Positions 14,059 to 47,231 of a DNA stretch of 64,000 nucleotides are shown piece by piece. The notes under the pieces are model-generated. The model did not search any database. It was not told the DNA's origin and was given only the letters and a program-made list of their open reading frames with translations. The position numbers were made by a program, and so were the translations under genes. How positions within the stretch are numbered: the first letter of the stretch is position 1; every line of letters begins with the position of its first letter. Source of the stretch: a virus (Duplodnaviria > Caudoviricetes); the IMG/VR virus record IMGVR_UViG_3300033066_001190, positions 42,588 to 106,587 of that record; one strand, 5' to 3'.

Positions 14059-14062
14059 GATT

Positions 14063-23056: not shown

Positions 23057-23069
23057 AAATACAAGAAAT

Positions 23070-25604: not shown

Positions 25605-25631
25605 TCACCGTCATAAAATTCATGGATTTTC

Positions 25632-25662
25632 TTTGACTATTAACAAAAAATAATTAATATTG
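25632..25662 (+). promoter_or_regulatory. Bacteroidota-type promoter variant (TTTG-19 nt-TAATATTG)
   Basis: One mismatch to TAnnTTTG. Ends 4 nt before ATG 25667. Confidence 0.4.
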
Positions 25663-25666
25663 TAGT

Positions 25667-30100: not shown

Positions 30101-33100
30101 ACTCCTGTTTCAGATAAACCTCAAGAACAAGTAACTCCTGAACCTGTTGAAGAAATTAAATCTGATAACTCTTTTGAAAAAATCAAATCGGAAATTGATA
30201 ATTTACCAAAAGAAGAAATAAAAACATTGCAATCTCTTTCTGAGATTGAAGCTAGATATCCTAATTTGAGTGAATCGGATCAAGAAAAGCTTTATGATTA
30301 TGTAGATACAAAACTTAACTCTTTAGAAAAAGAAGCAGATAAAGTGTCTACTTTTAAAGACAAAACAGGTAAAGAATTTTCTCTAACAAAGAAAGATCAA
30401 ATTCTTGTTAATGGGGAAGTGTTTAACCCTATTTCCTATGAAAATAATAGACTGAAAGGGAAGTATTTAAATAATTCACAAGAAATATCCCTTAATCCAG
30501 AAGATTTTGAAATTTCTACAGATAAAGAAGCTATAAATAAAGTTCTTTCTAAAACAAAAAAGGAAGAAACAAAAGAAACAGAGGATTTTATTTCTGCTGA
30601 AACTCTTCTTGATAAAGAACCTAAAGCTACATCTTCTGATATTGAAGCACAAAAAGCTGATATAGAAAGAAGAAAACAAGAGGAGTTAATCATTCCTAAT
30701 ACAAATACTTCTTTGTATGACAGTGTTAAAAAATTAGAAAAAGGTATTGAAGATATTACAAACAAAATAGCTGAATTAGAAAAAGAAGGTAAAGGTAATA
30801 TTGCTAATCAAAGAACAGGAGTTACATCTCTTTCTGGATTAGCAACTGATAGGAAAAGATTAGAAGACATTCGTGAAAAAGAGCTAGAGAAAATAAACAA
30901 AATCAATGCTAAATATGATGCAGAATTAGCTGCTTTAGAAGGTAAAAAAGAAGAAACAAAACCTGTAGAAGAAGTTGAACCTGTTTCTAATGAAGAGTTA
31001 GAAAAGGAATTACTACAAATAAATGAGCAAATTAAAGATGCTTTAAATGATGAAACTTCTACTATAACAGTAGAAGAGTTAGCTAAACTAGCTAATAGAC
31101 AAAAAGAAATAAAAGCTGCTTTAGGTATTACAGAATCTAAACCTGAAACTAAAGAAGAAAAGGTTGAAAAAGTACAAGAAAAAGAAACTAAAATAACCGA
31201 TAGTAAATTAAGTAAGGTTTACTATCCTTTTTCTACCACTCCTCAATATGTTACAAAATCTGGTATAACTGATGATCCTTTTATTCAAATTCAATCTAAC
31301 GCTTTAAACAAGCTTAAAAAGGAGAACGAACTAAAGTCTTATGAAGACATGGGTGTATTTGTTACAGTTATGAACAATACATTCCCATTGGACGAAAAAC
31401 ATCAGCCTAAAAATACTCTAGATGCTGTAAATTCAGGTAAAATAACAAAAGAAAGGGTAGAAGAAGGAAGGATTGCTGTTCTTACAAATAAAAATGGAGA
31501 ACCTTTATATTTTGACAACGATGGAAATAGAACAACTAGTGATAAAGGAACAGTTGTTTATCAACCATTACGAGGAACTATCAAAGATGGTAAACTTGAT
31601 ATGTCCAAACAAAACATTCCAACACAAGAGGAATTAAAAGCTTCTGGAGATTTAGAAAGGTTCAATATAGAAATTCAAAGACTTACAGAAGTACGTCTTT
31701 CAAAAGAACCTGTTACATTAAAAATAGCAGAAATTACTAAAGGTGTTGACAATTTTAATAAATCTGAAAGAACAAAAATTGATTCTAATAAGTATGATAT
31801 TCTTATAAAATCAAATGGTTATGTTGTAGCAAAAGATAAAACCAACAACATAGAAGCTCCTATTTATAGGTCAACATTGGAAGCAGCAGGATTATCTGAT
31901 TTCATTGCTGCCTTTATGAACATGAATAATAAAGAAGGTTTGGCTGCCAATCTTAAAAATGATTGGCAAGCAAGACGGGATTTCCTAGAAAAAGTTATCT
32001 ACACATCTCCTGCTAGAAGAATACGCTTTAATGAACCAAATCTATTTTTAACATCTTCTGAAGAAGTATCTAAACTTCCTGTAAACGTATCCCAAATCTA
32101 CTTAAATGAAAAATTTGATTGGTATAAATGGGACGGTAATAAATTTATCCCAGATAATTTTAATACTTACCAAGATTTCTTGGCAGATAAACTAACTGTA
32201 GCTTCTGTATCTCCTAGTTATAATTCCTATATTAAATTAGGTGAACAAATATCTAAAGAAACAAAACCTATTCAGGAATCACCAAAACCTGAACAAGCTC
32301 CTTTAATTCAATCTCCTGTAGCTAAAGAATTTAAGAAATCAAATAGATCACAAGGAATAAAAATAAATACTGATGCGAAAGGATTATCAGGAGTTAGCAA
32401 AAAAACAGACCTTAAAAGAACTAAACTTCTTGGTAAACGGATTACAGAAGAACAAAATAAAATAGCTAAAGAGTGGTTTGATCAATATTTGAAACAATCA
32501 GGAGCTAATTTTGAAGACTTAAGAGATGTTGTAAATTCTGATGCATGGGCTACATGGTCTACTGCTGCTATTAAATTATGGCAAGGTGGGGATTTTACAG
32601 ATTTATATCACGAAGCTTTCCATGATTTCAGTCAATTGTTTTTAACAAAAGAACAAAAGAAATCTCTTTATGACGAAGTAAGAAAAACAAAACCTAGAAT
32701 ATCTGATTTTGAAGCAGAAGAAATTATAGCTGAGGATTTCAGAAAATACATGTTATCTGGTCAAAAGTTAATTCTTAATAATAGAGTAAAAAGAAATACC
32801 ATCTTTAGGAAGATGTATAACTTTTTAAGAGAGTTATTTACAGGAACACCTTCGTTAGAAGTAGTTTATCAAAAATTAGCTAATCAAAATATTTCTTCTT
32901 ATAAAAGAAATGTTGATAATGCTTTATTTGGTAAACTTAATAAAAACATAGAAGGTTTAACCTTCACTGAATCTGTAAATCTATATAGAGCTTTAGATAG
33001 CTTAATAGCTAAACAATTTAGAGAATTTGGAATACCTATTTCTAGATTATTCAAAGAAAAAGAAGTAATTGAAAAAACATATCAGCAAGTTGCTTTAGAT

Positions 33101-36100
33101 TTAAAAGCTGCTTTAGATCAAAATGAACAAGATTACAATGTTTTAGTTGATAGATATGCCGAAGCTGATGAGTTGACAAAATTATCTCTCTTACCAGATT
33201 TAACAGCTCTTGAAAAACTTGTTAACAATCTATCTTTTGTTCTGGAGAATTTTAATGATGTAAGGGCTAAACACCTTGTAGAATCTGAGTTTTTGAAAAT
33301 CTCTAAAAGCTTTGTTCCCGAAGAAATAATAGACGAATTAAATCCAGAAACTAAAGATGCTATATATGATGATAAAGAACAGGAATCTGCAAAAGATAGA
33401 GCTTCTAATCAAATCATTTATCTATTAGCTTCTTTACCGAAATACATTAACAAAAACGGAGAAAAGGTATTAGCTTACAATCCTTTTATTGATGTAATTG
33501 AAGACATTACAGAGTTTGATTTAGCTTGGAATAGGTTAGCTAAAAAACTTACAGGAGTTAGAGATTATAAAGTGATGATTGAAAAAATTCAGGAATTGAC
33601 AAAAACTAACCCCGAATATGAAGAATTATTAAAGTCTTTACCAAATCCAAATATGGATGGTAAAGAGTTAACTCTTTTAGAAATTCAGTTAAGAAATCAA
33701 TTCATTAATACTTTTTCTCAGCCTTATGTACCATTAAAGTTTGCTTCATGGTGGAAAGATGAAAAAGGTCAATTGAGAATAAATACCAAAGAAGCCACTG
33801 GTAAATCATTTGATTTATTAAAATTGGATTGGGATGAAAATATTCAATCTATTCCAAACGAATATAGAATATTGGATGAAACTACAGGTCAATATTCTAT
33901 TGATATTGATAAAATAACTAAAGATTTTGAAAACATCAACAAACTTCGTCCAAAAAGGAAAGAAGAGTTTTTAAAAGCTTTGGGATTTTCATTTTCACCA
34001 CAAACATTAGAATCTCCCGAATACCTAGATTTGATTACAGATAATCTTGTATTGGGTAAAATATACAACGCTATAAAAGATTTATCTAATCTCAAAAATG
34101 GTATTTTACCAAATGGGTATGAATTAACTGATTTTGAAAAAGAGTTTGTAAATAAACCTGTTACATCAATTATTGATGCTATAAAAGTATCTAAACATGG
34201 AAAAGATAAAAATAGTATTCAGAGATTAGGTGATTCTCCAATTTTAATTCAGGGTCAAAAAGACAACATAGAACAAATTCAAGCTATTGAAATAAATTAT
34301 TCTGATAGGTATTTCTCTGATAATTTGTTGAATTCTGAAAACTCAAACGTTTGGGCAATAAGACCTTGGAGTCAACAATCTGTTTTATATAGTTATTTGA
34401 ATGATCCTAAGTTTGAAACTTATGAAGATTTAATAAATGATCCAACAGGAGCTTATTTTGATATATCTAAAAACCCAGATGCTGATAATATTTATCTAAA
34501 TTCTGTATTTGATGTTGTAACAGGTAAACGTAGATTAGATAGGAAAGGTAATCCTGTAAAAATTAATCTCTATAACCATAATGGTTTAGAAATCAATTTT
34601 GGAAATGAAACAAAAGGTGGTAAAACAACCTCTCTTTCTAGGTTTGAAAAATTAGTACAAGATATAGCTCCATTGTTATTATCTGGAAACAAGGAGCATA
34701 TTCGATATGGTGATAAAACTACTTCTAATGGTACTGAAATTAGGTTTAAAAGGCTTGTAGAACCTAAAGCTGAAAACCCATACCTACCTGTAGATATATC
34801 TTCTTTTAAAAATACTTACCTCCCACAAGAAGCAAAAGCGATATTTAGGAGAATACTTCATTCTGCCCTCTATCAAACCAATCAATATTTTACTGAGGGT
34901 ATAGGTAAAGATTTTTCTAACTTTAATCAAAATCTTGAAAAGGAAGAATATTGGGGATATTTTGATGGTATTCTCTCAGAAGAAACCAAAAAAGCTTTAA
35001 TTAGTCAAGGTTTAATTGAAAAACCTCTTGATATATTTAAATTGATTGACGATAACTCAAAATTAATTTATAGGGATTTAGAGGTATTTCTTGAAAATGA
35101 CGTAAAGAAAATAAAAAAAGAAGTAGAATCTAACTATGCTGTTTCTACCGAAGATTTTATTCCTAATGAACTTTTGAAGAAAACAATCTATGGTGAAACA
35201 GAACAACAAAGTTTAGAAACAATTTATAGGGCTTTTGCTATAAATTCTTACATCATGAATCTTGAACACACTAGATTATTGTTTCAAGATCCTAGATTTT
35301 ATGATAATAAAAAAGGTAGTTATAGAGAACCTTTTAAACGTTATGCTAAAGCCTCTTCTACAGGAACTATAGCTGTAAATGATGACCAGCAAAATGAATT
35401 TTTACAAGGTAGTAGATTAGAAAAACAATTATACGATAGTAAAAATCCAGACAACAAATCTCCAGAATGGACAGAAACAGGTATTGAAAACAGTGTTATT
35501 TTTAATGATGTTGTTATTTCTGCTGATGATTTTGTAAACCAAATTGAAGATATATTCAAAGATAAACCTTTAGAAGAACAATTAGCTGTAAGAAAAGCTT
35601 ATTCTGATATTACTTCTACAGATGCTTTTGGTTTTTGTACATTTGATTGGTACAGACAGTGGGAAATTAGAAGTGGAAATGATAATTGGAACAATGAAAA
35701 GGAAGAATTATATAAGAAAATTGTTACAAAACAACCTATTTCTGAAGACGAATTACTAAAATCTTTTGCTTTTTTCCCACCAAAAAAACTAAGGGTTGTT
35801 GGATTTACTTTTAATAGGAAGACTAATAGGTTTGTACCTATAGATTATAAATTTGCAGTTTCTCCACTTTTACCTAATTTGGTAGAAGGTAAGACATATG
35901 AAGTTGTAAAAGATAACATGTTAAGACAGAATATATCTTTGGGATTGTTTAAATCAGCCTCTAAGCATTCTGCAATTACATCTGATGGTAAATTTAATGA
36001 TTTGTATAATAAAGATGGAAGCGTTAATACAGGTGATTATACAATTAACCCTATTTACTCTGAATTCATTTTTGAAGTGGTTGCATCTCCAAAAGATTAT

Positions 36101-39100
36101 AAAGGAAGTGTAAGTTTTTCAACACAGTTGAGAAAATTGTTGTTTGTCAACTCTTTTAATAATGGAGTACCAATTGATTTTAAAGGTGATAATTGGGAAA
36201 GTTTATCTCAATCTGAAAAAATAAAACAGTCTAACATATATAGACTTGAACAAGAATTTGGGGATACAATAGATAAATTGGTTCAAAATGAGAAAGAAAA
36301 GCTATTAAAATCTCTTAATATAAAAATAGACTCTGAAGGAAATTACGATGTTTCTGAAGAAAAACTATCAGAGTTATTAGAAAAGGAGTTTAAGAAAAGA
36401 AATCTACCAAATAACGTAATCAAAAGTATACAAACTGTAAATGGTAAATTTAAGTATGCTTTAGACGCATCTTTACAAAGAGAAACAATAGAACAGATAA
36501 TTCTATCTATTGTAGATAATAGGTTAAGGAAACAAAAAGGTTTAGGAGAATCCCTCATTCAAGCCTCTTCTATCGGGTATGAAAACAAAACACTTGACAG
36601 AGTTAGTAGTTGGAAATCTATAAATGGTAATGATTTACCTTTTTATCAATATGTAAAAGATGGTAAAACTAAGGCTCAAAAGGTTAAAATAGCTCTACAA
36701 GGTGATTTTAAAAATCTTTTAAATCTGCCTCAAGTAAAAACTCTTTCTGAAAGAAACGATATAAAACCTATAGAGGCTTTAAATACACTTCTTAAAGACG
36801 AAGGTTTTGTAGATTCTATAAGAGATTTAATTACTATTACAGGTGTAAGGATTCCTGTACAAGGAACTAACTCTATGGAATTTATGGAAGTTTATGAATT
36901 CCTTCCAGAAGAAGCTGGTTCTGTAATTATTGTTTCTCCTGCTCTTGTAGCTAAATCAGGAGGTGACTTTGACTGGGATAAAATTACATCTTTATATCCT
37001 TCTTTTAATGTGACAGAATCAGGTATACTGATTTATCCAAATCAATCAGAAAAAGTAAATGAATCTGTATATAGAAATTTAGTAAAAGAATTTGATAAAG
37101 AAATTAGCAATGTTCCTGATTTTTACAATAAATTAATAAAGAGTATTTTTGATATTTCTCCAGAAGATTTACAAGATGAGTTAGTATCAGAAGATATATT
37201 TCAAACTAAAACTGTTCCAAGTTTTAAAACATATAATAGAGTTCAAACTAAGAAAGCTTTGAACAATAGGTTAAATCAAATAATTAGAGAAACCTTAGAA
37301 AGACCTGATATGTTTGAATCTTTGGTTACACCAAACTCTACTTACTTGTTTGAAGATATTGCAGATAAGAGGTTAGAAGCAATTTCTAAAAATAAACCAA
37401 CTTATTCTGATATACCTAGTGTGACAGAATCACTTAATCAGTTTGAATCAAACACTGTAGGTAAACAATCTTTGGGTATTGGTGCTATATGGAATACATT
37501 ATTTTCACAAATGCAAAAAGCAGGAGTGGTTTTAAATAAAACCTATATTACCAACATTGATTCTGCTAAACCGTTAGTAAAACAAACAGTAAACAGACTT
37601 CCTCACAACAAAACAAAATCAGGAAATATGTCTTTATCTGGGATTTATTCTCAGACTTATAAAGGAACAAAATATCCTATTTCAGAAGTTATATCTCAAT
37701 TAATGAATGGTTGGGTGGATGTAGCTAAAAAAGATTGGATTTTCTATATTAATGGTAGAAAAGAAATAGCTCCTACATTATTATATACAGCTACAACAGG
37801 TGTTCATAAAGATTTGTTAGTAGGCTTTTTTAATCAACCTATTTTGTACGAATACATAAAAAATCTACAAAATTACAAGTCTCAGATAGTAAGGTTAAAA
37901 GATGAAAATCTTTACAACAATGCTAAAAAGAATGCTATTTATGATACATTGTCTAAATATTTACCAGAATCTATTCTAAATGACTTAACAACTGCTTTTG
38001 AAAACGGTTCTCAAGGTTGGGAATTTTGGAATTACATAAATGTAGAATTGCGAAACTTAGCTGATTCTAATCCAGAAGCATTTGAACCAGAATCATTTAT
38101 GAAGTTTGCTATTCCTGTAGATAAAAAATTAGCAATCCCTTCAACAGATCAAGAAAAATTAAATCAGGCTCTTTACTTAGTTCAATTTTTAGAATTACAA
38201 GAACAGGGTAATATTGTTGAAAAATTGAGAAGGGTTGTTAATCAAGACACTGAAAAACCTGTCAATATTCAATATTCTAAAGAAAGACAGGTTAGAAGAG
38301 TTGAGTTAAAGGATTATAGATTGATTCCAGAGGAGTATATTGAAAAAATGGCTAACGAATCTGTAATCAAAGGATTTACTCATTCTAAAACAGGTATTGA
38401 TAAATTTGTTGAAAAGCTGACAAAAAATGTATTTGAAATAACAAATCATCCAGTTTTTAATAGATTTTTGTATGATGAATTTAATAAACCGACAAAAAAT
38501 AAATACAAGAATGAGGAAATTGTTGAATTTGGTAACAGTATACCGTTCTCAATAAAATATAACATTTACGAAGATTGGGTAAAAGCTGTTAAAAACCAGT
38601 TTATAGAATACCTATATCAAAACTATGTCTATAAGCCAAATACTACACAAAAAGTAGCTAATTATATTTTTGAAAAAATGAAACCTTCTACAGCATTAGC
38701 TTTAGAACTAGAAAATATAAAAACTGCATATCCAGATTTAGTGGAAAATAATCTACTTTTACAATTCTTGATTAGAGATAATTCAAGGGAAAAAGTGGGA
38801 GGAAAACCTAAATATGTAAATCTTAAACTTAGAAAAGATAGAATTGATTCATCAACAAGCAATGTATTAACAGAAGCTTTTGAAGATTTATTAAATTCTG
38901 ATATTTCAGAAATACAACAGTTTTCAAGAAAACTTGCTCATTTTGCATTTATTCAATCAGGTTTACAAAAATCCCCAATTTCTTTTGCAAATATCATTCC
39001 TCAAGAACATTATGGGGAAGATGTTTCCAACATTATAAAAGCATTTTCTGAATTAATGACAGAAAATCCTTTACAGGCTAAAAGAGAAATACAGAAATTT

Positions 39101-39820
39101 TATGATGATTATTTTAAGAAGTATAACAGAAAATTCTTTATTGCTCAACAAATATTTGATCCTGCAATAGGTAAAGATGTTAATGACATAGATTTTCAAA
39201 GTGAAGCTTACAGATTCCGTAATTTTGTGAATACAAGAGCTTATGATTTACTTTCTAAAAAACAAAATATAGAGATTAAAAAACAGCAAGAGTTTTTAGA
39301 TTCTGTTAAAAAAATGTCTACTATTTCAGACACCCCTTTTACAGAAACTACGGCTAAAGAAAATCCAAATAATTTTTATATTTACGAATTCAATGAAAGT
39401 AAATCTGGAAAATTGGGATCATCAAAAGTTAGAGAAGGTGGAAATAACACTGCTGCTATTATTTTAATGAAACAAGCTAAAGTGGAAGGCGGTAATTGGA
39501 CAGATGATACATATGCATCTAACATTAACCAAATAGATAGCTCTATTTCAGAAGCAATAGCAAAAATTCAACAACAAAAACCAGAGTCTATTGTTTTCCC
39601 TACAAATCTTACACAATTTTCTAAATTACAACAATTTGCTCCTAAGACGGCTGCATATTTATACAAAGCATTACAAGATAATTTTGGAATAGATATAAAA
39701 CCTGCTGATTTTGATAATTTTAAAGAAGCACCTGCTGTTGAACCTACTGTAACTACAGAAGTAAAACCTATAAATGATATTATTAAAGATTTAGGAGAAG
39801 ATCCTTTAACAAAATGTTAA
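27122..39820 (+). CDS. giant virion-packaged DNA-dependent RNA polymerase polyprotein (crAss/phi14:2 gp66-like) with zincin domain
   Basis: GVRIPVQGTNSM (~36842) and SGGDFDWDK (DFDWD 36965-36979) catalytic region, STQLRKLL, TDAFGF. Zincin LYHEAFH (32609) with EEIIAEDF. Confidence 0.9.
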   Translation: MAETLKDLYGKLEKANIKLPDYDTFEKKYNTPEGADVLYKKLNSANIKLPDVESFKSKYFTTSTSDNLVKQDSDNIITKNLKNIVSNVTGYQFDQPEQKGIDFVFGKDKQNRSINTPSATITIDEESEPNYKLAALQTTGKVNLTPEDMDNPYVVERVRANKRNIDDQIQKVKDAYIETKDTDVLFSGIEDLKKIYQTKEGSFVKNQLDKDSKKIEEEIKLLENYKTENSGKGSELFPDEAEKIVGKKGILTKADVGNRLKELYAIRNTPKKELDDLLQVDESLNQVAKSLIKYKDDLAEAARETPEILVNQKEDNLLYNLAEYGTKVSNTNSKELYDANLLKFKKRIASDEQGNFIDLRQLLSNTTNNDYYTSNLVGDRAKFQEDTYNGIKALRDNIALAKDEKYGIPAQIKRLQQEKQQLIDTYAKANVPVPEQELRAFDDIIKYNENKLTNQNALSKKLDEIEKQYLSEYKDVKQYKEDNTKLSELYLKDSSKVGVLDQVSLEAKPFYKTLYGITGGVAQAIEQNITLPLEEKTGIISKEQRIAQSLDNYYAINNVNFLYVPDAIKNRQSIKITKDDKAPLGFKINDVNVRAALSEGVNTFIQSYAFGKAGQLFGKASGLSGAIGEELGTVWGGAFTSNVMMSEIDDQNIEKFLRGEIKFDDIVPKSTLEKTLEGATEAIWIPELKVLDHAGQEIVKKYALGKFLQESVGRKMLSDDFKYLAKTVVKNAIEVPLHESIEEIAGNAGQDVIDIAYKKSNLKYNPEENFTLLNNIQTALVTTISMWVTSAVGITSSALNRASIGDTYNYEIAKNADEFYNYAVAGINELDNKEFSKIYPQFASKQEAISTTKKVYDQYKQLFNEAAPTTSMLVSDVDKQNYFNILMDLKKMSLEPATEENTKKAAILLSKKLAYDVKASELRNKPIKERLSATLDESIDQLATDDINVPTLQATILQMEKWKTLLGDDKQYTKDVQRLDNKIAEVKQRIIDLTPVSDKPQEQVTPEPVEEIKSDNSFEKIKSEIDNLPKEEIKTLQSLSEIEARYPNLSESDQEKLYDYVDTKLNSLEKEADKVSTFKDKTGKEFSLTKKDQILVNGEVFNPISYENNRLKGKYLNNSQEISLNPEDFEISTDKEAINKVLSKTKKEETKETEDFISAETLLDKEPKATSSDIEAQKADIERRKQEELIIPNTNTSLYDSVKKLEKGIEDITNKIAELEKEGKGNIANQRTGVTSLSGLATDRKRLEDIREKELEKINKINAKYDAELAALEGKKEETKPVEEVEPVSNEELEKELLQINEQIKDALNDETSTITVEELAKLANRQKEIKAALGITESKPETKEEKVEKVQEKETKITDSKLSKVYYPFSTTPQYVTKSGITDDPFIQIQSNALNKLKKENELKSYEDMGVFVTVMNNTFPLDEKHQPKNTLDAVNSGKITKERVEEGRIAVLTNKNGEPLYFDNDGNRTTSDKGTVVYQPLRGTIKDGKLDMSKQNIPTQEELKASGDLERFNIEIQRLTEVRLSKEPVTLKIAEITKGVDNFNKSERTKIDSNKYDILIKSNGYVVAKDKTNNIEAPIYRSTLEAAGLSDFIAAFMNMNNKEGLAANLKNDWQARRDFLEKVIYTSPARRIRFNEPNLFLTSSEEVSKLPVNVSQIYLNEKFDWYKWDGNKFIPDNFNTYQDFLADKLTVASVSPSYNSYIKLGEQISKETKPIQESPKPEQAPLIQSPVAKEFKKSNRSQGIKINTDAKGLSGVSKKTDLKRTKLLGKRITEEQNKIAKEWFDQYLKQSGANFEDLRDVVNSDAWATWSTAAIKLWQGGDFTDLYHEAFHDFSQLFLTKEQKKSLYDEVRKTKPRISDFEAEEIIAEDFRKYMLSGQKLILNNRVKRNTIFRKMYNFLRELFTGTPSLEVVYQKLANQNISSYKRNVDNALFGKLNKNIEGLTFTESVNLYRALDSLIAKQFREFGIPISRLFKEKEVIEKTYQQVALDLKAALDQNEQDYNVLVDRYAEADELTKLSLLPDLTALEKLVNNLSFVLENFNDVRAKHLVESEFLKISKSFVPEEIIDELNPETKDAIYDDKEQESAKDRASNQIIYLLASLPKYINKNGEKVLAYNPFIDVIEDITEFDLAWNRLAKKLTGVRDYKVMIEKIQELTKTNPEYEELLKSLPNPNMDGKELTLLEIQLRNQFINTFSQPYVPLKFASWWKDEKGQLRINTKEATGKSFDLLKLDWDENIQSIPNEYRILDETTGQYSIDIDKITKDFENINKLRPKRKEEFLKALGFSFSPQTLESPEYLDLITDNLVLGKIYNAIKDLSNLKNGILPNGYELTDFEKEFVNKPVTSIIDAIKVSKHGKDKNSIQRLGDSPILIQGQKDNIEQIQAIEINYSDRYFSDNLLNSENSNVWAIRPWSQQSVLYSYLNDPKFETYEDLINDPTGAYFDISKNPDADNIYLNSVFDVVTGKRRLDRKGNPVKINLYNHNGLEINFGNETKGGKTTSLSRFEKLVQDIAPLLLSGNKEHIRYGDKTTSNGTEIRFKRLVEPKAENPYLPVDISSFKNTYLPQEAKAIFRRILHSALYQTNQYFTEGIGKDFSNFNQNLEKEEYWGYFDGILSEETKKALISQGLIEKPLDIFKLIDDNSKLIYRDLEVFLENDVKKIKKEVESNYAVSTEDFIPNELLKKTIYGETEQQSLETIYRAFAINSYIMNLEHTRLLFQDPRFYDNKKGSYREPFKRYAKASSTGTIAVNDDQQNEFLQGSRLEKQLYDSKNPDNKSPEWTETGIENSVIFNDVVISADDFVNQIEDIFKDKPLEEQLAVRKAYSDITSTDAFGFCTFDWYRQWEIRSGNDNWNNEKEELYKKIVTKQPISEDELLKSFAFFPPKKLRVVGFTFNRKTNRFVPIDYKFAVSPLLPNLVEGKTYEVVKDNMLRQNISLGLFKSASKHSAITSDGKFNDLYNKDGSVNTGDYTINPIYSEFIFEVVASPKDYKGSVSFSTQLRKLLFVNSFNNGVPIDFKGDNWESLSQSEKIKQSNIYRLEQEFGDTIDKLVQNEKEKLLKSLNIKIDSEGNYDVSEEKLSELLEKEFKKRNLPNNVIKSIQTVNGKFKYALDASLQRETIEQIILSIVDNRLRKQKGLGESLIQASSIGYENKTLDRVSSWKSINGNDLPFYQYVKDGKTKAQKVKIALQGDFKNLLNLPQVKTLSERNDIKPIEALNTLLKDEGFVDSIRDLITITGVRIPVQGTNSMEFMEVYEFLPEEAGSVIIVSPALVAKSGGDFDWDKITSLYPSFNVTESGILIYPNQSEKVNESVYRNLVKEFDKEISNVPDFYNKLIKSIFDISPEDLQDELVSEDIFQTKTVPSFKTYNRVQTKKALNNRLNQIIRETLERPDMFESLVTPNSTYLFEDIADKRLEAISKNKPTYSDIPSVTESLNQFESNTVGKQSLGIGAIWNTLFSQMQKAGVVLNKTYITNIDSAKPLVKQTVNRLPHNKTKSGNMSLSGIYSQTYKGTKYPISEVISQLMNGWVDVAKKDWIFYINGRKEIAPTLLYTATTGVHKDLLVGFFNQPILYEYIKNLQNYKSQIVRLKDENLYNNAKKNAIYDTLSKYLPESILNDLTTAFENGSQGWEFWNYINVELRNLADSNPEAFEPESFMKFAIPVDKKLAIPSTDQEKLNQALYLVQFLELQEQGNIVEKLRRVVNQDTEKPVNIQYSKERQVRRVELKDYRLIPEEYIEKMANESVIKGFTHSKTGIDKFVEKLTKNVFEITNHPVFNRFLYDEFNKPTKNKYKNEEIVEFGNSIPFSIKYNIYEDWVKAVKNQFIEYLYQNYVYKPNTTQKVANYIFEKMKPSTALALELENIKTAYPDLVENNLLLQFLIRDNSREKVGGKPKYVNLKLRKDRIDSSTSNVLTEAFEDLLNSDISEIQQFSRKLAHFAFIQSGLQKSPISFANIIPQEHYGEDVSNIIKAFSELMTENPLQAKREIQKFYDDYFKKYNRKFFIAQQIFDPAIGKDVNDIDFQSEAYRFRNFVNTRAYDLLSKKQNIEIKKQQEFLDSVKKMSTISDTPFTETTAKENPNNFYIYEFNESKSGKLGSSKVREGGNNTAAIILMKQAKVEGGNWTDDTYASNINQIDSSISEAIAKIQQQKPESIVFPTNLTQFSKLQQFAPKTAAYLYKALQDNFGIDIKPADFDNFKEAPAVEPTVTTEVKPINDIIKDLGEDPLTKC

Positions 39821-39827
39821 AACAAAA

Positions 39828-42680
39828 ATGAGCTGTTCATTAAATAAAACAAAAAAATTAGCAAGAGATAAGGGTATCATGAATGAGTTTAACAACTTAC
39901 CAAGTGATACACCTCAAAGTGTTAATAATTTTAACAAATTTGCTGCAAACATAAAAGATTTAGCAATTTCTAAATTTGGAAAGCTTCCTGAAGGACTAAC
40001 TCAACCTATCCGTTTAGAAGGAATAAAGGTTATTTTTAATAGAGGGTTTTTTGAATGGGTTGATAGGGAAAATGATAAACTTTCTTCTAATCAAAATAAA
40101 CTATTTCAAAAACAGTCTCAAGAAGGCATTATAGCTTCTGAAAAAACCATTCGTGATTTAGCTGCAAGAATATCGGATAGAATAGGAATTCCTTATAAAA
40201 TTATTTCCGATAGAACACAGGAATTCAAAGGAAAAATTGAAAGTAATACAGCTATAATTAACTTAGCTTATGCTACATTAGATACACCTATACATGAAAT
40301 ATTAGGGCATCCTATTATTAGGGCTATTAAAAATAATAAAGTTTTATCTGAAAAAGAATTTACTCAAGAAATATATGAAGGTAAAAGAACTTTAAAAGGT
40401 AAAACTGTTTTAGATGATTATATAGATTATCAATCTGAAAAATTACAGCAAAATAATTATCATAAATTATATCAAAACCTTCTTAAAGAACTTGAATACG
40501 GTAAAGGTAAAGAAGTATTAGATAGAATTAAAAGGGATTATGTTTATAAAGCAGACTTTAAAAGAGATAATATAATTAAACAAATAAATGATTTAAAGTT
40601 TGAAGAAAACCAGTATATAAAATGGGATGAAAAAGAAGCATTAGCTTCTGTTCAAGAAAGAAAAAAAGTATTAGAGGAGGAATTAGAAAAAAATTATTCT
40701 GCTAATAAATACTCTTTAGAAGAACAACAAGAAGAAGCTATTGTAGAATTATTGGGTTTAATGACTGCTGATAAACTAGATGCTGTAAAAGATGGTAAAC
40801 TAATATCTCTTCTCAAAAGGCTTCTTAAAGAAATGAAGCAATTTGTTCGTTCTTTATTAAGACAAAGAAAAGTAGAAATAGACAAATTACCTGATAATAT
40901 GACATTAGGTGATTTAGCTGATTTATTAGCGTATTCTAATAGTAAATTAATACTACCTGGATATGAAGTAATTTACACTACTCCTGATAATCAACAATTT
41001 AAAACTTATGCGGAAGCAAGTAATCATATTAGTGAATTGACTAAAAGTGTCAGAGATGTTGATTTAGATAATATTAAAATTCAAAAAGAAAAAGTAAACA
41101 ACCCTGATGATATAATAGTAGATAGTTTTGAAATTAGACATGATGATAAAATGCCTTCAGAATATGTAAGAATTGATGGCAAATGGTATCAGGAAGTTTT
41201 TTATACTCCAGAATACTCTGGAGATCCTGGAGTAGAACATTATCCTATTTCTGATGAAAAAATTATTTCTTTATTTAATTCTCCTGAACAAATAGGAGTT
41301 TTTAAAACAGGAATTGATATTTTAGGTTTTATACAAAAAAACAAAGAATATGAACAATCTAAAGAAATTATAGAAGAATGGAAAAAAGTAAATAACATTC
41401 AATATAATCCCGAAGAAATATATTCAAGGGGTCAAGAGTTTAGTTCTGTTGTAGGAGCTTATTCTTCTTTTGATGTAAATCTTATGATGCAGAATCTTCT
41501 TCAACATATAGAAGATAACGAAAAAGCAGGTGGTAAATTTGCTATTTCTGCATTTACTAAACCTATTGATAAACAAATAGGTCATTTAGAAGGTGAAGGA
41601 GGTAAGATTAAATTTAAAATTTACCCCAAATCAGAAGATATTTTATGGGCAGCTAATACAGATGTTTATTCAGGAAGTGTTTGGGATGCTTCTGAAAAAG
41701 TAAGCAAAGATAAAAAATCTGAATTGTTAGGAGTTAGTTATACTAAATATCCAGCTTTAGTAAATGTTAATAAAGTGCAACCTAATTTAGCTTCTATTGT
41801 AGATGACTTGGCACATCATCATAACGAATTAGGTATAGTTCTTACAGGTAATAATTTTAGATTAGAATATGATGAAGATATTCCTTATTCTACTAAAAAA
41901 ATTATTGATTCTGTTAATTCAATACTAGATGAAAAATATGGTAAATTAGTTAAACCTGAAATTAGTAAAATCACTACTATTCCAAATACATTTGAATATT
42001 GGCAACAAGATATGTATGAAGATGGAGGAGTAGATAGATTTAAAATAAAAATTTATAAAAAAGATAATAAGTGGTTTGAAGAATTTTTTGATACTAGGGG
42101 ACAATCTGAAAGTATTAGAGAGATTACTTATAAAGAAGTAGAAACTCAATTTAATGAAGCATTAGCTTCTAATTCTACACTTACAAAAAACAAAGGTATT
42201 CAACCAACTCAAACTAATGAAACTTTAAAAGAGAGTATTCAAAATATTATAAATAAAATTCCTAGACAAGGGGAATTTGATTATTATGAATCTGATGGAT
42301 ATTTTTACATAACACAAAATCAAACAGAAATAGGTGTTGTAGCTTCTAAAGAAGAAGCTCTTAAACAAATTAAAGAATTAAATAATGGTAATAAAGAATA
42401 TACTTCTCAAGCGTTGATTAACACTAAAATAGCAAAATTAAAAGAAGTAGCTAAAAAATATCCAAGAAGTTTAATTAGAAGTGAAGTTAAAAAGGAAACG
42501 AACAAATATGGTTTAGAGCGTGAATTTTTTGGAGATGAATTACCTTTTCAAAAAATATCTTCGGTAAATTACCAATCTTTATTATCTTTAAAACCTAATA
42601 CAGATATTACAGAACAAGAATGGGATGAATTAGATCAAGAAGAAAAAGAAGTTATATTATATCAAGCTAAAAATTGCTAA
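39828..42680 (+). CDS. cargo protein with zincin-like metallopeptidase motif
   Basis: IINL..ATLDTPIHEILGHPII (40293) and EEAIVELLG (40731). Confidence 0.65.
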   Translation: MSCSLNKTKKLARDKGIMNEFNNLPSDTPQSVNNFNKFAANIKDLAISKFGKLPEGLTQPIRLEGIKVIFNRGFFEWVDRENDKLSSNQNKLFQKQSQEGIIASEKTIRDLAARISDRIGIPYKIISDRTQEFKGKIESNTAIINLAYATLDTPIHEILGHPIIRAIKNNKVLSEKEFTQEIYEGKRTLKGKTVLDDYIDYQSEKLQQNNYHKLYQNLLKELEYGKGKEVLDRIKRDYVYKADFKRDNIIKQINDLKFEENQYIKWDEKEALASVQERKKVLEEELEKNYSANKYSLEEQQEEAIVELLGLMTADKLDAVKDGKLISLLKRLLKEMKQFVRSLLRQRKVEIDKLPDNMTLGDLADLLAYSNSKLILPGYEVIYTTPDNQQFKTYAEASNHISELTKSVRDVDLDNIKIQKEKVNNPDDIIVDSFEIRHDDKMPSEYVRIDGKWYQEVFYTPEYSGDPGVEHYPISDEKIISLFNSPEQIGVFKTGIDILGFIQKNKEYEQSKEIIEEWKKVNNIQYNPEEIYSRGQEFSSVVGAYSSFDVNLMMQNLLQHIEDNEKAGGKFAISAFTKPIDKQIGHLEGEGGKIKFKIYPKSEDILWAANTDVYSGSVWDASEKVSKDKKSELLGVSYTKYPALVNVNKVQPNLASIVDDLAHHHNELGIVLTGNNFRLEYDEDIPYSTKKIIDSVNSILDEKYGKLVKPEISKITTIPNTFEYWQQDMYEDGGVDRFKIKIYKKDNKWFEEFFDTRGQSESIREITYKEVETQFNEALASNSTLTKNKGIQPTQTNETLKESIQNIINKIPRQGEFDYYESDGYFYITQNQTEIGVVASKEEALKQIKELNNGNKEYTSQALINTKIAKLKEVAKKYPRSLIRSEVKKETNKYGLEREFFGDELPFQKISSVNYQSLLSLKPNTDITEQEWDELDQEEKEVILYQAKNC

Positions 42681-45600
42681 ATGGCTGCACATTGTATAAA
42701 TATAAATAGTCCCGATTTTAAAAAATTGCTGGAAGAAACAGGTTTTAAATCTGAAATTCTATCTGCTAAAATATCTATTTGGCAAGACAAAGTGGGTAAA
42801 ATAGATCAATTTCCAAGCAAGTATGAATTATTTAAGTTAGAAACAGATAAAGAAGAGGGTAAATTGCAATCTGAAATTTCTGACATTGTAAAAGAAATAG
42901 AGAATGCAGATAAAGAAACTATTGTAAAAACAGTAGATGAATATTTTACCATTATTTCAAACCACTTAAAAAACCTAAGAGAAAGAAAATCTTACTCTAG
43001 ACTTAAAAAAATACTAACTACTTCAGAAGGTATAAACAAATTAAGTACATTACAAGACATACTTTCTCAAGCTAAGAAGCTAGAAGAAACCATTGAAAAT
43101 GATTCAAGAAAGATAAGAGCTATTGCTAAATCAGTTGTGCAAATAAATCACTTAACAGATCTGGTATTAGAAGATGTAAAAGATATAGTTAAATCTAAAG
43201 ATGATTCCGTAGAAAATCTCCAAGTACTGCAAAGTTATTTAAACGTTTTAAATGATTGGGATATATTGTTAGACCAAGCTAGTCAATCTTTTGCAATTGG
43301 AAATCCTCTAACAACAAAAAAGGTTGGAGAAGTAAAATTAAAAATCAAGCAAATTGAAAACCTCATTTCTAAAAATGATGAATTAGGAATTATTAAAGTT
43401 TTACAAAAGGTATTAATTCCTGCATCCGAAGATATTATGAAGTTTTTAGAGCAAGAATTATCTGCTCAAAAACAAAGATTGCAAAGAAATATAGATAGAA
43501 AAGCTGGTGATAGTACAATAAAATCAATAGAATCTTCTATAAAAGCAATAGAAACAAAAATGAAAGAGCTTGATTTTAACAATGCTCAAAACATTTTAGA
43601 CTTCTTAAAAGGTAAAAGAGGGGATGCTACTGTTTTTAATACTTGGTTAGAATCATTTAGAGATTCTTCTGATCCTACCATAGCTGCTTTTGCAACATTT
43701 TTAAAAGAAAAAACTGATGAAGTAGCTAACAAAGTTTACAAAACTGACCTACAATATCAAAAAGATTTAGCTCCTTACATAAAAGAATCTGAAAGACTTG
43801 ATCCTTCTATACTAACTAAAAAAATAACTTTTGAGGATTTGATTTTACAAGATGGTGAACCCACCACTGTATTATCTTTACTAAATCCTTGGAAAAATTA
43901 TAGATTGGATTATGCTCAATATTCAGAAAATGAGCAATTAGCAAAACAAAAGTATTTGGAAACTAATTCAGAAGAAGATAGAAAAGAATATTTACAAAAG
44001 AAAAAAGAAAGACAATCTTTTGAGCAAAATGTGTTATACACTGAATTTGTTCCAGAAGTGTATGAAAAATATAAACTTTTTGATGATGAAATAGGTCAAG
44101 AACTTAAAAAAGAGTCTGATGAAATATGGGAAAAAGTAAATGAAATAGATGAAGCTTATAAATTATTTGGCACTGAATTAACTTCAGAACAAGAGGAACA
44201 AAAAGAAGCTTTATTGTTGCAATATAAAATGCTTGGTAATTTAAATAAACCTGATGGAACTCCTAAAACAGGTAAAGATTTAGAGAAAGCTAAAAGAATG
44301 CAAGAAGTAAGAGCATTAAATAGAAAATTTTATGAATGGAAAGACAACTTAACCCAATTTGAAAAAGCTAAAGAAAGACATTCTGAATATATTATTTCCA
44401 AAGGTATTCCTGAAGATTCAGATGAATATAAATTAGAAATGAAAAAATGGGAAGATGAAAACTCTAGATTTGTTATAAAGGATGAATTTTACAAAAAGAG
44501 AGATAGCATTGTAAGAGAAATAGCTATTTTAACTAAAAAGTTTAAAAATAGTGATATAGATGAAAATATATCAGAATTGTGGAAAACAATACAATCTATT
44601 ACATATGGGTTAAGGGATGAAGACAATCAACCTATTGGAATCCTTATACAGGAAAAAGGAGCTGAAAGAATAAAAGCTGCTCAAGAAGCTATACAAGATC
44701 TACAAAATAAAGTAACTAAAATATCAGGACTGTCTTTTGACGAACAAGCTGAAATGAGTAGATTGTTTGAAAAAGCTAAAAACAGAGAGATTACTCCTGA
44801 AGAAAGAAATGATTTAGATTATCTTGTGGATAAATCAAAAACTGAAGGGTTGTCTAAAACTCAAAAAGAAAGACTTTTTCAATTATTTCAAGAACTAAAA
44901 GATTTACAATCCACTTTACCTACAGAATATTATGTACAGGCTTTTAATAACTTGTCTACTAAATATTCAGTGGTGTTATTGGAAACAGGGGAAGTTGTTG
45001 AATCTGATGGAGCAATTGTTCCAATATTGGAATCAAAAGTGCTATCTAAATTGTTATCAAATCCTGATTTTAAAGAATGGTTTGATCTAAATCACATTCA
45101 AGTAGAAAAATACAATCCTGAAAAAGAAGCAAAAGAATTAAAATGGCAAAGAACTTACCAATGGAATAAAATTATTCCAAACAATCCTGATTATATAGAG
45201 GTTAAGCCTTCCTTAAAATACAGTTATAGGGAGATAAAACCCGAATACAAAACAGAAAGAATAGTTGGAAAAACTGTAGATAATAAAGGAAATTGGTTAC
45301 CAAATCCAGATAAAAAGGGAAGTGCTGCATATAGAAATGAAAAGTATGAGCAATTAGTAAAAGGTAAGGATGATGAGTCTAAGAGATTGTCTAAAATATT
45401 AGACATTCATACAAAATACTTATTAGACACTCAAGAAAGTCTATCCAGAGTTAATAAACTTTACTTAGATGTTCCTAGAGAAGAAAGAGAATCATATGAG
45501 CAAAACATAGCTTTTTTAAAAGATTTTATGAAATCTCCTGGCTCTATACCTAAATTAATATGGGAAAGAATCAAAGAAAAGTATAACAAATTAACATCTT

Positions 45601-47231
45601 ACAATGAATCTGATGTAAGTTATGAATCACCTTTTGAAGGTAAATACGACAAAGATTTTATCAAAATACCTATGAAGTATATAGGTAAAATTGATTTAAA
45701 TGAAGTTTCTTTAAATTTACAAAAAAGTATTTCTAGATATAATTATTCATCTGAATTAAACAAGCAATTGGTAGAAACACTTCCTGTAGCAAGAGCTTTA
45801 AATAGAGTTTTAGAAAATAATGATGTCCATAAACCTAATAAAAAGAAAAATCCTCATAGAAAGAATGCTATTCAAAAACTAATAATTAGGGAATTTGAGG
45901 GAAAAAAATCTAATTTAGAACTAGAAAATCTAGGAGCTGGTAAAAAACCTGTAGCAGCAACAATAAATTTAATGAAATATTTAGCTGCGTGGTCAAGTAT
46001 TAGGCTTAATATCCCTGCTGCTGTAACTAACGTTGTTAATGCTGTTGCTCAAAACTGGATAAATGCAGGTAATCACTTATATTCTAAATCTAGCTATGCA
46101 TTATCTGAATTAATTTATGCTACTAGATTTTTTCCAAATTGGCAAAGAGATTATTATGAAAACAAGTTAGGTAATTTATCAATAGAATCTCAATTAGTTG
46201 ATGTTTGGCAACCTGTACAAGGAGAAACAATTGAAGAAAACATAGGAAAGAAGTTTTCTCAATCAAAAGCCTATGACACATTAGCAGCAAATTGGCTGTT
46301 TAATTTACGTAATTGGGGGGAATTTTATGTTCAAACAAGAACATGGATTTCAGCTTTATACGAAACAAAAGTTAATTATGGACAAGATGTAATATCTTTA
46401 ATAGATGCTTATGAACTTGATTCAGATGGTATTATTAAATTGAAAGATGGGGTAGATAAGTCATGGGAAGTTGATGGAGAAAAGTTTAATAGATTAAAAA
46501 ACCAAATACAAGCTTTAAACCGTAAAATACATGGCAATTATGCAACTTTCGATAAAACTCAATTAGAAATGTATGCTTTAGGATCATTAGCAATGTTCTT
46601 AAAACGATTTTTTGTTTCTATGGCCGCTAATAGATTTGCTTTTGGTGGCAATATTCATGAAGGTAGGTTTGATATAAATTCAGGTATTCAATATGGATAT
46701 TATACTCAAACCTTGTCAATAGCTATTAAACAATTACAAAATGGTTTAAAAGATTGGGATTTATTAACAACAGAGCAAAAAAGAGCTTTAACTAAAACAA
46801 CAATGGAAGTAGCTGTCATATTAGGAGCATTAGCTTTAATGATGGCAATGGGTTATTCTGGAGATGATAAAAACAAAAAGAAAAAACTCATTAATTATTC
46901 ATGGTTAGAGCTACATGTTTTATATCAGTTAGATAGACTTTATATAGAGACTTCATCTTTTATAAGCCCTAAATCTTATTTTGATTATGTTCTCGATTTT
47001 CAAATAAAAAAATCACTAGAAAAATGGTATAAACTGCTTACAGATATTATTTCTCAAAATGAATATGAATCCTCCCTTAAAAATACAAAGGGAGAATTCA
47101 TATACAAAAAGGGAGATAAAAAATGGAAAACTCAATTAAAAAGAGCTACAGGAATACAGCAATTAATGATGTCTGAAAAAGATCCTGATATTTTGCTACA
47201 AAGTTATGATAGAAGTGTTAGAGGGAAATAA
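42681..47231 (+). CDS. large cargo/ejection protein with C-terminal membrane segment
   Basis: 1516 aa, helical. IHGNY...DK.......LGSLAMFLKRFF motif and hydrophobic VAVILGALALMMAMG. Last gene of the cargo block. Confidence 0.65.
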   Translation: MAAHCININSPDFKKLLEETGFKSEILSAKISIWQDKVGKIDQFPSKYELFKLETDKEEGKLQSEISDIVKEIENADKETIVKTVDEYFTIISNHLKNLRERKSYSRLKKILTTSEGINKLSTLQDILSQAKKLEETIENDSRKIRAIAKSVVQINHLTDLVLEDVKDIVKSKDDSVENLQVLQSYLNVLNDWDILLDQASQSFAIGNPLTTKKVGEVKLKIKQIENLISKNDELGIIKVLQKVLIPASEDIMKFLEQELSAQKQRLQRNIDRKAGDSTIKSIESSIKAIETKMKELDFNNAQNILDFLKGKRGDATVFNTWLESFRDSSDPTIAAFATFLKEKTDEVANKVYKTDLQYQKDLAPYIKESERLDPSILTKKITFEDLILQDGEPTTVLSLLNPWKNYRLDYAQYSENEQLAKQKYLETNSEEDRKEYLQKKKERQSFEQNVLYTEFVPEVYEKYKLFDDEIGQELKKESDEIWEKVNEIDEAYKLFGTELTSEQEEQKEALLLQYKMLGNLNKPDGTPKTGKDLEKAKRMQEVRALNRKFYEWKDNLTQFEKAKERHSEYIISKGIPEDSDEYKLEMKKWEDENSRFVIKDEFYKKRDSIVREIAILTKKFKNSDIDENISELWKTIQSITYGLRDEDNQPIGILIQEKGAERIKAAQEAIQDLQNKVTKISGLSFDEQAEMSRLFEKAKNREITPEERNDLDYLVDKSKTEGLSKTQKERLFQLFQELKDLQSTLPTEYYVQAFNNLSTKYSVVLLETGEVVESDGAIVPILESKVLSKLLSNPDFKEWFDLNHIQVEKYNPEKEAKELKWQRTYQWNKIIPNNPDYIEVKPSLKYSYREIKPEYKTERIVGKTVDNKGNWLPNPDKKGSAAYRNEKYEQLVKGKDDESKRLSKILDIHTKYLLDTQESLSRVNKLYLDVPREERESYEQNIAFLKDFMKSPGSIPKLIWERIKEKYNKLTSYNESDVSYESPFEGKYDKDFIKIPMKYIGKIDLNEVSLNLQKSISRYNYSSELNKQLVETLPVARALNRVLENNDVHKPNKKKNPHRKNAIQKLIIREFEGKKSNLELENLGAGKKPVAATINLMKYLAAWSSIRLNIPAAVTNVVNAVAQNWINAGNHLYSKSSYALSELIYATRFFPNWQRDYYENKLGNLSIESQLVDVWQPVQGETIEENIGKKFSQSKAYDTLAANWLFNLRNWGEFYVQTRTWISALYETKVNYGQDVISLIDAYELDSDGIIKLKDGVDKSWEVDGEKFNRLKNQIQALNRKIHGNYATFDKTQLEMYALGSLAMFLKRFFVSMAANRFAFGGNIHEGRFDINSGIQYGYYTQTLSIAIKQLQNGLKDWDLLTTEQKRALTKTTMEVAVILGALALMMAMGYSGDDKNKKKKLINYSWLELHVLYQLDRLYIETSSFISPKSYFDYVLDFQIKKSLEKWYKLLTDIISQNEYESSLKNTKGEFIYKKGDKKWKTQLKRATGIQQLMMSEKDPDILLQSYDRSVRGK

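Follow-up and report, generated by a model that had tools for sequence, protein, structure and literature searches.

Terminal cysteine pairs at the junctions of giant cargo proteins in a distant crAss-like phage and their possible role as head-to-tail links

Introduction

No viruses of the human gut are more abundant than the crassviruses. The cargo that these phages package and deliver amounts to about 5 MDa of protein, with the RNA polymerase (RNAP) that starts the infection among it, and a chain of linked cargo proteins would bear on how this is achieved. Here, we describe three consecutive genes for giant cargo proteins in a 64,000-nucleotide stretch of viral DNA (IMG/VR record IMGVR_UViG_3300033066_001190, positions 42,588 to 106,587; hereafter the window). 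The three proteins carry four of their five cysteines at the ends that face a neighbour, and the analysis concerns the possibility that these residues join the proteins head to tail.

A link of this kind has been described in cyanopodophage A4. The cryo-electron microscopy structure of its pre-ejectosome contains a disulfide between Cys1715 of gp27 and Cys5 of gp26, with the C-terminal helix of gp27 placed in a cleft of gp26 (PNAS 2025, PMC12002296). The bond was described as stabilising the gp27/gp26 ring around the core, and the authors suggested a chain reaction upon ejection; they treated the bond as a structural detail, and a wider rule that includes plug-in modules was not drawn from it (PMC12002296). 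In the A-4L genome, gp27 (1717 amino acids, aa) and gp26 (1114 aa, start MSKHC) have one cysteine each, and these are the bonded residues.

Among crassviruses, mass spectrometry of crAss001 virions revealed the proteins gp47, gp49 and gp50, which are predicted to exit partly unfolded (Bayfield et al. 2023, PMC10172136). The virions of this phage also contain disulfides, in the tail and in gp57 (PMC10172136). The cargo proteins of phage phi14:2 were likewise reported in virions (Drobysheva et al. 2020 preprint, 10.1101/2020.03.07.982082), and their annotation comes from virion proteomics by tandem mass spectrometry. A 2026 paper still listed the crassvirus ejection proteins as unresolved. Our literature search found no description of a cargo chain in crassviruses.

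Results

Cysteines at the neighbour-facing ends of three window proteins

The three genes lie on the + strand. The first one (27122..39820, open reading frames (ORFs) called with table 11) codes for an RNAP of 4232 aa. After a spacer of 7 nucleotides (nt) defined by the ORF coordinates (39821..39827, +), it is followed by the gene for a 950-aa protein of an uncharacterised family (39828..42680), which was assessed by sequence counts and by 120 relatives. The third gene (42681..47231) codes for a 1516-aa protein, and its start codon abuts the stop codon of the second gene, so that the gap is 0 nt. We refer to these proteins as the first, middle and last chain members.

The RNAP ends with ...EDPLTKC, and its last residue is Cys4232 (codon TGT at 39815-39817, followed by TAA at 39818-39820). 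Its N-terminus, MAETL, has no cysteine, and the sole other cysteine is Cys2839 (codon 35636-35638). The 950-aa protein contains only Cys3 (start MSC, codon 39834-39836) and Cys950 (...YQAKNC, codon TGC at 42675-42677). In the case of the 1516-aa protein, the single cysteine is Cys5 (start MAAHC, codon 42693-42695), which opens the head motif C-I-N-I-N-S-P, and the C-terminus reads ...RSVRGK. At the DNA level, the first junction is ...ACA AAA TGT TAA, 7 nt, ATG AGC TGT, and at the second one ...AAT TGC TAA is directly followed by ATG GCT GCA CAT TGT. Four of the five cysteines are thus located at the four neighbour-facing ends, and the two outer ends of the block are cysteine-free. An earlier reading of this DNA, made from the sequence only, had reported a cysteine at all four junction ends, gaps of 7 and 0 nt, and two, two and one cysteines in the three proteins; our counts agree with it exactly.

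Cysteine makes up 0.075% of the 6698 residues of the three proteins (five cysteines), compared with 0.86% across all 33 listed ORFs of the window. When five cysteines are placed at random, the probability of finding at least four of them in the four 8-residue ends that face a junction is about 3e-9. For the remaining 30 ORFs on the list, a cysteine was found within the first 8 residues in four cases and within the last 8 residues in two, which is about the number expected from composition. The claim that chance would hardly produce this placement holds in the window, and it gains from the conservation of the terminal cysteines across the three protein families described below.

Identity of the three proteins

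Sequence comparisons place the window in a distant crAss-like phage. Residues 1808-1879 of the RNAP were aligned by BLASTP to residues 2135-2206 of crAss001 gp47 (E=1e-7), and residues 3108-3298 to residues 1340-1499 of crAss001 gp50 (E=3e-11). Since gp47 and gp50 are separate proteins in crAss001, the window RNAP is a gp47+gp50 fusion. The tblastn search matched it to g066 of phi14:2, the catalytic RNAP subunit (E=3e-14). The catalytic DFDxD motif of the two-barrel virion RNAP is present as DFDWD at residue 3282, and DUF7831 occupies residues 4073-4182, directly before the cysteine tail. The 1516-aa protein is a homologue of crAss001 gp49 (BLASTP E=4e-16, with tblastn in agreement) and of phi14:2 gp65. 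With the RNAP and the 1516-aa protein as queries, tblastn also matched many other crassviruses.

The homologous proteins of phi14:2 (g067-g066-g065) and crAss001 (gp47, gp50 and gp49) are packaged in the virion, are predicted to pass the tail partly unfolded, and follow the same terminal-cysteine rule. In contrast to both phages, the window fuses gp47 and gp50 into one protein of 4232 aa and has an additional 950-aa module between the RNAP and the gp49 homologue. Virion presence is known for the phi14:2 and crAss001 homologues; the three giant proteins of the window are most likely packed in the particle and injected.

The 950-aa protein matched no Pfam family and no PHROG. A megablast search with positions 39000-43500 and a tblastn search with the 950-aa protein against a phage collection gave no match either. 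The protein contains HEILGH (HExxxH) at residues 156-161, which 35 of the 40 relatives in an alignment have kept, and the canonical HExxH was not found in it. The AlphaFold2 (AF2) model has a mean predicted local distance difference test (pLDDT) value of 67 and a predicted template modelling (pTM) score of 0.41, with low confidence at the ends (residues 1-5 and 946-950). A Foldseek search of the Protein Data Bank (PDB) with this mediocre model returned no match at E<=0.001. The earlier label of this protein as a zincin is therefore weak, since it has HExxxH instead of HExxH and the searches of Pfam, PHROG and known folds gave no match. HEAFH, a zincin motif of the canonical form, is located at residue 1830 of the RNAP, in its gp47-like half.

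Some relatives of the 950-aa protein add ART-PolyVal, YbiA/NADAR, zeta-toxin/AAA_33 or RNase H domains, and within this set some RNAP relatives do likewise. These extra effector domains make the 950-aa family behave like a carrier of injected effectors. The polyvalent proteins of phages and conjugative elements are likewise large, consist of many domains and enter the cell together with the DNA (Iyer et al. 2017, PMC5512222); unlike them, the window 950-aa protein matched no LPD or effector family of the polyvalent set in Pfam. Its look-alikes in a protein atlas belong to LPD/ART-PolyVal clusters with scores of 0.82-0.88, below 0.9, and they are leads only. To our knowledge, terminal-cysteine linkage is not part of the definition of polyvalent proteins.

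Conservation of the terminal cysteines

The family of the 950-aa protein was sampled with 120 proteins of 524-1662 aa, which are 36-66% identical to the window protein. A cysteine is present within the first 8 residues in 105 of them, mostly at position 3, and within the last 8 residues in 90. Exactly two cysteines, both terminal, were found in 82 proteins, and internal cysteines account for 0.020% of the residues. In an alignment of 40 sequences, C3 and C950 are invariant columns and the surrounding sequence is not conserved. In the RNAP family (50 proteins, 2602-5782 aa), every member has a cysteine within its last 5 residues. The 25 members that also have an N-terminal cysteine are the shorter ones, with a median length of 3523 aa against 4244 aa for the members that lack it. 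The 1516-aa family shows the opposite arrangement, with a cysteine at position 3-8 in 15 of 16 proteins and a C-terminal cysteine in none of the 16. Its head reads C-[PI]-N-x-x-x-P (consensus MxxCPNxNxP). In general, the residue preceding a head cysteine is variable (A, S, T, N, K, G or P).

Related loci were collected by a profile scan of viral contigs, which gave 35 loci, and by a single-sequence scan, which gave one locus. In the 34 non-redundant loci, cysteines are present on both sides at 39 of the 42 junctions between consecutive chain ORFs, counts which come from relatives that are not independent samples, though their tails and heads are very diverse. None of the 27 complete last chain proteins ends in a cysteine, and internal cysteines make up 0.023% of the 150,608 residues of the chain proteins. 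The junction cysteine lies at -1 to -8 from the C-terminus and at +2 to +8 from the N-terminus, with TGT and TGC both in use as its codon. Gaps from 0 to about 740 nt, in which another gene may intervene, do not break the rule, nor does a partner gene encoded on the opposite strand.

Enrichment of terminal cysteines in homologous cargo blocks, which had been proposed as a check of the window pattern, is found, both in the RNAP family (50/50) and at the junctions (39/42), and the relatives that keep the rule number in the hundreds. These sequence data support the conclusion that the RNAP cargo block has conserved its terminal cysteines under selection. Most likely, selection has purged nearly all cysteines from these proteins and kept exactly one near each end that faces a neighbour.

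Two further observations were made on the cysteines of these families. Counterparts of the internal Cys2839 of the RNAP occur at a similar distance from the C-terminus in many relatives, as judged without alignment. In one ORF of locus L022 (5546-7219) and in the family members P0033, P0047, P0074, P0103 and P0119, the tail motif (...EIDC, ...GNPC) is not terminal. A conserved domain of some 65 residues comes after it and ends with ...GL[LVI][LI]PK..., which places the cysteine 60-67 residues from the end.

Split and fused forms in characterised crassviruses and beyond

In phi14:2, the sole cysteine of gp67 (1797 aa) is its last residue, gp66 (2180 aa) has only Cys3 and Cys2179, and the sole cysteine of gp65 (1421 aa) is Cys3. 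The crAss001 proteins are similar: gp47 has a sole cysteine at position 2339 of 2341, gp50 (2412 aa) has Cys5, Cys2404 and one internal residue, Cys1334, and the sole cysteine of gp49 is Cys5. The rule also fits cr111_1, cr108_1 and cr106_1 (Steigviridae), cr55_1 and cr4_1 (Suoliviridae), and the gp45/gp44 pair of p-crAssphage. Under table 11, each cargo gene of cr4_1 contains 7 to 38 in-frame stops, which points to a probably reassigned stop codon.

Where two chain proteins are fused, the junction cysteines are missing. There is no cysteine at the fusion point of the gp47+gp50-like RNAP of the window. A fusion of the 950-like and gp49-like proteins was found in at least 12 loci, and the single cysteine kept is that of the head. 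In L018 and L026 the RNAP is fused to the 950-like part, and in L033 a stretch of 2874 residues over the entire 950-like region has no cysteine at all. The p-crAssphage protein gp44 unites a gp50-like with a gp49-like part; it contains Cys3 and lacks a cysteine at the C-terminus, while gp45 ends with ...SCM. The sequences support the conclusion that junction cysteines occur where two chain proteins meet, whereas fused junctions and both outer ends of the chain lack them.

The chain rule had been formulated in terms of gene order, and in this form it fails. In crAss001 and cr106_1, the gp47-like gene, which codes for the first chain protein, is on the strand opposite to the other two chain genes. 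The rule thus follows the protein order of the fused forms and not the adjacency of genes.

The Leptolyngbya phage Lbo-JY46 is a 125-kb cyanophage outside Crassvirales that has gp47-like and gp49-like cargo (locus L042, 8192-21098; BLASTP E=1e-10 and 4e-33, respectively). The sole cysteine of its 1552-aa protein is the last residue, and that of its 2748-aa protein is Cys4. The presence of a terminal-cysteine pair in this cargo indicates that the block and its rule extend beyond the order Crassvirales.

Small links and GIY-YIG cassettes

The idea that the terminal cysteines are a plug-in standard predicted that inserted modules carry both of them. Four small proteins located between chain proteins agree with this prediction. 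They have 99 aa (MKSC...ICINF; L028:8566-8865), 124 aa (L032:9020-9394), 199 aa (L036:7794-8393) and 318 aa (L038:13802-14758), and each has a cysteine at position 3-5 and another within the last 1-5 residues. No Pfam family was found in any of the four, and they look like minimal chain links. Other genes between chain genes have no terminal cysteine, namely those for a GIY-YIG endonuclease, Amidase_2, a YkuD peptidoglycan enzyme, ferritin and DUF5856, and the tail-head count remains intact around them. The ferritin-like gene is present at L027:9308-9796 (PF00210, E=6e-20) and, by similarity only, at L032:8532-9023. The DUF5856 gene was found at L011:4383-4736 and L031:7426-7779, with the domain scan made in L011 only. 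A protein that handles iron or oxidants within the cargo block might conceivably have to do with thiol oxidation.

Free-standing GIY-YIG genes (PF01541) split the 950-like gene in five loci (L013:11869-12609, L019:10944-11669, L022:11935-12591, L028:10944-11687 and L031:10348-11070). The cuts were made at three places, which correspond to window residues ~184/207, 354/359 and 702/703. At every cut, the N-terminal half has gained an extra tail of about 16-26 residues ending with ...KEC, and the C-terminal half an extra head of about 23-34 residues starting with M-[AS]-C-K-Y (e.g., MACKY). The KEC tails and CKY heads are related between the different cut sites and are absent from unsplit homologues. 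The recurrence of a related tail-head pair at three insertion sites suggests that the pair travels with the GIY-YIG cassette. Two more GIY-YIG genes are located at the RNAP-950 junction (L007:1715-2257 and L025:9343-9885), where the tail-head pair is a different one (...GCDTPF and MWSPPC). The window itself has no GIY-YIG cassette.

The ORFs of the split loci abut or overlap, and no non-coding DNA is left between them. A group I intron around the GIY-YIG gene was considered and rejected: Rfam gave no match to Intron_gpI or another intron family in L013, L019, L028 and L031 at the gathering score, nor in L013 (11600-12900) at E<=10, searches in which divergent introns can be missed.

The nearest described case is that of Aeromonas phage Aeh1, in which NrdA-a, mobE and NrdA-b replace a single gene and tails derived from the insertion reassemble the split enzyme (Crona et al. 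2011, PMC3045599). As in the 950-aa relatives, a free-standing endonuclease gene splits a coding region there, and the halves gain extra peptides. The two cases differ in the endonuclease, which is of the HNH type in mobE and of the GIY-YIG type here, and in the junction cysteines at the peptide ends and the three insertion sites, which belong to the 950-aa relatives. The small plug-in links with both cysteines and the GIY-YIG cassettes with a cysteine tail and head of their own are new here.

A wider role can be imagined for these ends, and we put it forward as a tentative and rather doubtful possibility. The cysteine tail and head might be a portable joining standard, a redox-reversible stand-in for the peptide bond. 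The giant injected polyprotein of crAss-like phages could then be cut anywhere, new effectors could be inserted and selfish endonuclease genes tolerated, GIY-YIG cassettes with their own cysteine tail and head would mend the gene that they interrupt at the level of the protein, and the whole chain would exit the capsid as one thread, to be parted by host reductants. If this is true, the cysteine-ended GIY-YIG cassettes would be a third route for tolerating selfish genes, beside introns and inteins. In one RNAP relative (P0156, 5782 aa), the Pfam intein/homing-endonuclease families PF05203 and PF05204 were detected, together with five internal cysteines; judged from these matches, inteins also invade the RNAP cargo gene.

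Discussion

Taking the cysteine pattern and the A4 structure together, we think it rather probable that head-to-tail disulfides turn the cargo proteins into a pseudo-polyprotein. During assembly, the C-terminal tail of one protein would dock non-covalently on the N-terminal head of the next one. After the particle has left the reducing cytoplasm, a timing that we infer, the two thiols would form an inter-protein disulfide. The RNAP, the 950-aa module and the 1516-aa protein of the window would in this way become a linear pseudo-polyprotein with a total of about 6,700 residues, packaged at a fixed 1:1:1 stoichiometry. Its order would be that of the fused protein which other crassviruses make from a single gene. 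The chain might leave the particle as one partly unfolded thread, and host thiol reductants would then separate its parts. Because the links are at the extreme ends, such a chain would be nearly unbranched, which would make packaging at fixed stoichiometry and exit as a thread possible. The near absence of internal cysteines, even in cargo outside the chain, and the retention of cysteines at the extreme ends suggest that thiols are reactive in the particle and that the chain must stay linear. The sequence-only reading had proposed an ordered cargo chain made by the terminal cysteines. The sequence rule, its conservation, the behaviour of split and fused forms and the portability of the ends speak for it; the disulfide itself is known from A4 and would apply here by analogy, and threading and reductive release are steps that we infer.

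The comparison with A4 has two sides. In both cases the proteins are consecutive large ejection proteins, and the A4 cysteines occupy similar places, the third residue from the C-terminus of gp27 (1715/1717) and position 5 of gp26. A4 differs from the window in having one link rather than at least two, in having no RNAP, and in belonging to another family (Saffermanviridae). Compared with the one disulfide of A4, the proposed chain would be a modular variant with several links. BLASTP found no homology of the window proteins to A4 gp26 or gp27 below E=0.1, and hhalign of the gp49-family profile against A4 gp26 gave a probability of 0.1%. The signature shared with A4 is either convergent or older than sequence similarity can reveal.

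Several other readings of the pattern have to be weighed. The genes are tightly coupled (TGTTAA followed after 7 nt by ATG, and TGCTAAATG), as would suit a nucleotide-level effect such as a translational-coupling motif at the stop and start codons, and chance or a gene-calling artefact could also be invoked. However, the probability calculated for the window is very low, the position of the cysteine varies, both of its codons occur, and the rule persists across long gaps, an intervening gene and an opposite-strand partner, with highly divergent flanks. The comparative sequence data in effect refute this reading, and the chance that it is right is close to negligible. Another reading is a functional role without pairing of neighbours: middle modules such as the 950-aa protein could close on themselves (here through Cys3 and Cys950), or the ends could form homodimers or be attached to other parts of the virion, e.g., portal or capsid proteins. 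The two heads and two tails of the window cannot separate a chain from a cyclised 950-aa protein plus an RNAP-1516 link, and partnerless terminal cysteines exist in p-crAssphage gp47, in the 674-aa protein of Lbo-JY46 and in L032. Yet the first and last chain members have single terminal cysteines of opposite kind, and tails equal heads locus by locus, a match which homodimers or outside partners would not require. Moreover, fusion removes both cysteines of one junction together, gene halves made by an endonuclease gain a tail and a head cysteine exactly at the cut, and the A4 pair is a hetero, head-to-tail one. We therefore consider pairing other than between neighbours improbable.

The remaining two readings accept the neighbour contact and concern its nature. 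It may be that the disulfide only locks a static pre-ejection assembly in the head, with no role in threading, exit order or reductive release. The description of the A4 bond as a stabiliser of the ring suits this reading, and exit order is not visible in sequence. A stabilising bond, however, could sit anywhere in an interface, yet the cysteines are mostly at positions 3-6 or in the last 1-5 residues of unrelated sequences. The chain is also colinear with fused polyproteins; both features fit a need for a linear unbranched topology, and the chain reaction on ejection was suggested by the A4 authors themselves. A purely static lock is in our opinion unlikely. Finally, the tail and head thiols could share a metal ion, or use other reversible thiol chemistry, to clamp a non-covalent tail-head complex. 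Such a clamp would work in anoxic habitats, the window head MAAHC has a histidine beside the cysteine, and the pairing statistics fit any one-to-one thiol contact. On the other hand, one cysteine per end provides two thiolates per junction, and a second ligand is not conserved; the almost complete loss of internal cysteines fits selection against thiol-disulfide scrambling and not metal binding, and the single solved case, A4, is a disulfide. We regard the clamp as quite improbable. Two other kinds of chemistry were rejected. Native chemical ligation or intein-like chemistry does not agree with a cysteine that is not first after removal of the methionine, and no intein-sized domain is present; lipobox or CaaX-type lipidation does not agree with the lack of a signal peptide and with the variable distance of the cysteine from the end.

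The proposed disulfide chain itself meets several difficulties. Many crassviruses, and probably also the relatives of this phage from anaerobic digesters, live without oxygen, which puts the oxidant for a disulfide in doubt. With one generic cysteine per end, the specificity of pairing must come from docking, and the window sequence is, as said, also compatible with self-closure of the 950-aa protein plus an RNAP-1516 pair. Homology of A4 gp26 to the gp49 family could not be detected, so that A4 serves as a precedent by analogy. There are irregular loci as well: in L022 and five family members a small domain has been added behind the tail cysteine, which thus stands 63-67 residues from the end, and in L032 a head cysteine has no tail cysteine upstream. 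No obvious partner was found for p-crAssphage gp47 (L006:4706-7279), whose sole cysteine is residue 856 of 857, and for the 674-aa protein of Lbo-JY46 (L042:2095-4119), whose sole cysteine is residue 5; these either link to further partners or depart from the pairing rule. The papers on phi14:2 and crAss001 are silent on terminal cysteines or a link between these proteins (10.1101/2020.03.07.982082, PMC10172136), and the purification of gp66 was carried out with dithiothreitol (DTT) or tris(2-carboxyethyl)phosphine (TCEP).

If the disulfide chain is nevertheless real, a covalent, redox-reversible connection would explain the fixed stoichiometry of the cargo, the like behaviour of separate-gene and polyprotein forms, and the way in which new enzymes join the injected set. 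Another possible use of these short tails and heads is as natural tags for linking proteins, with reduction as the means of cleavage.

Neighbouring genes

Upstream of the RNAP, three cargo-like ORFs of 937, 851 and 483 aa (20243..27118, +) are placed outside the chain on the basis of their position and cysteine counts. They contain 0, 2 and 0 cysteines, respectively, none of them terminal. Their position corresponds to that of crAss001 gp45 and gp46 and of counterparts in the other crassviruses checked, which are also cysteine-poor. Further upstream is a 1560-aa ORF for a muzzle-type structural protein (14042-18724), which matched phrog_37948, a virion structural protein (E=7e-197), and, weakly, gp44. 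The order of the muzzle-type ORF, the 937-, 851- and 483-aa ORFs and the RNAP is a layout common to crAss001, cr111_1 and phi14:2. The 851-aa ORF (23049-25604) codes for a gp45-like cargo protein with a lone cysteine pair, Cys60/Cys68. Such a pair, with 8-9 residues between the positions, is also present in crAss001 gp45 (390/398), phi14:2 g069 (369/378) and cr111_1 (224/232), and it forms a conserved CX7-8C motif in an ejected protein that is otherwise cysteine-free.

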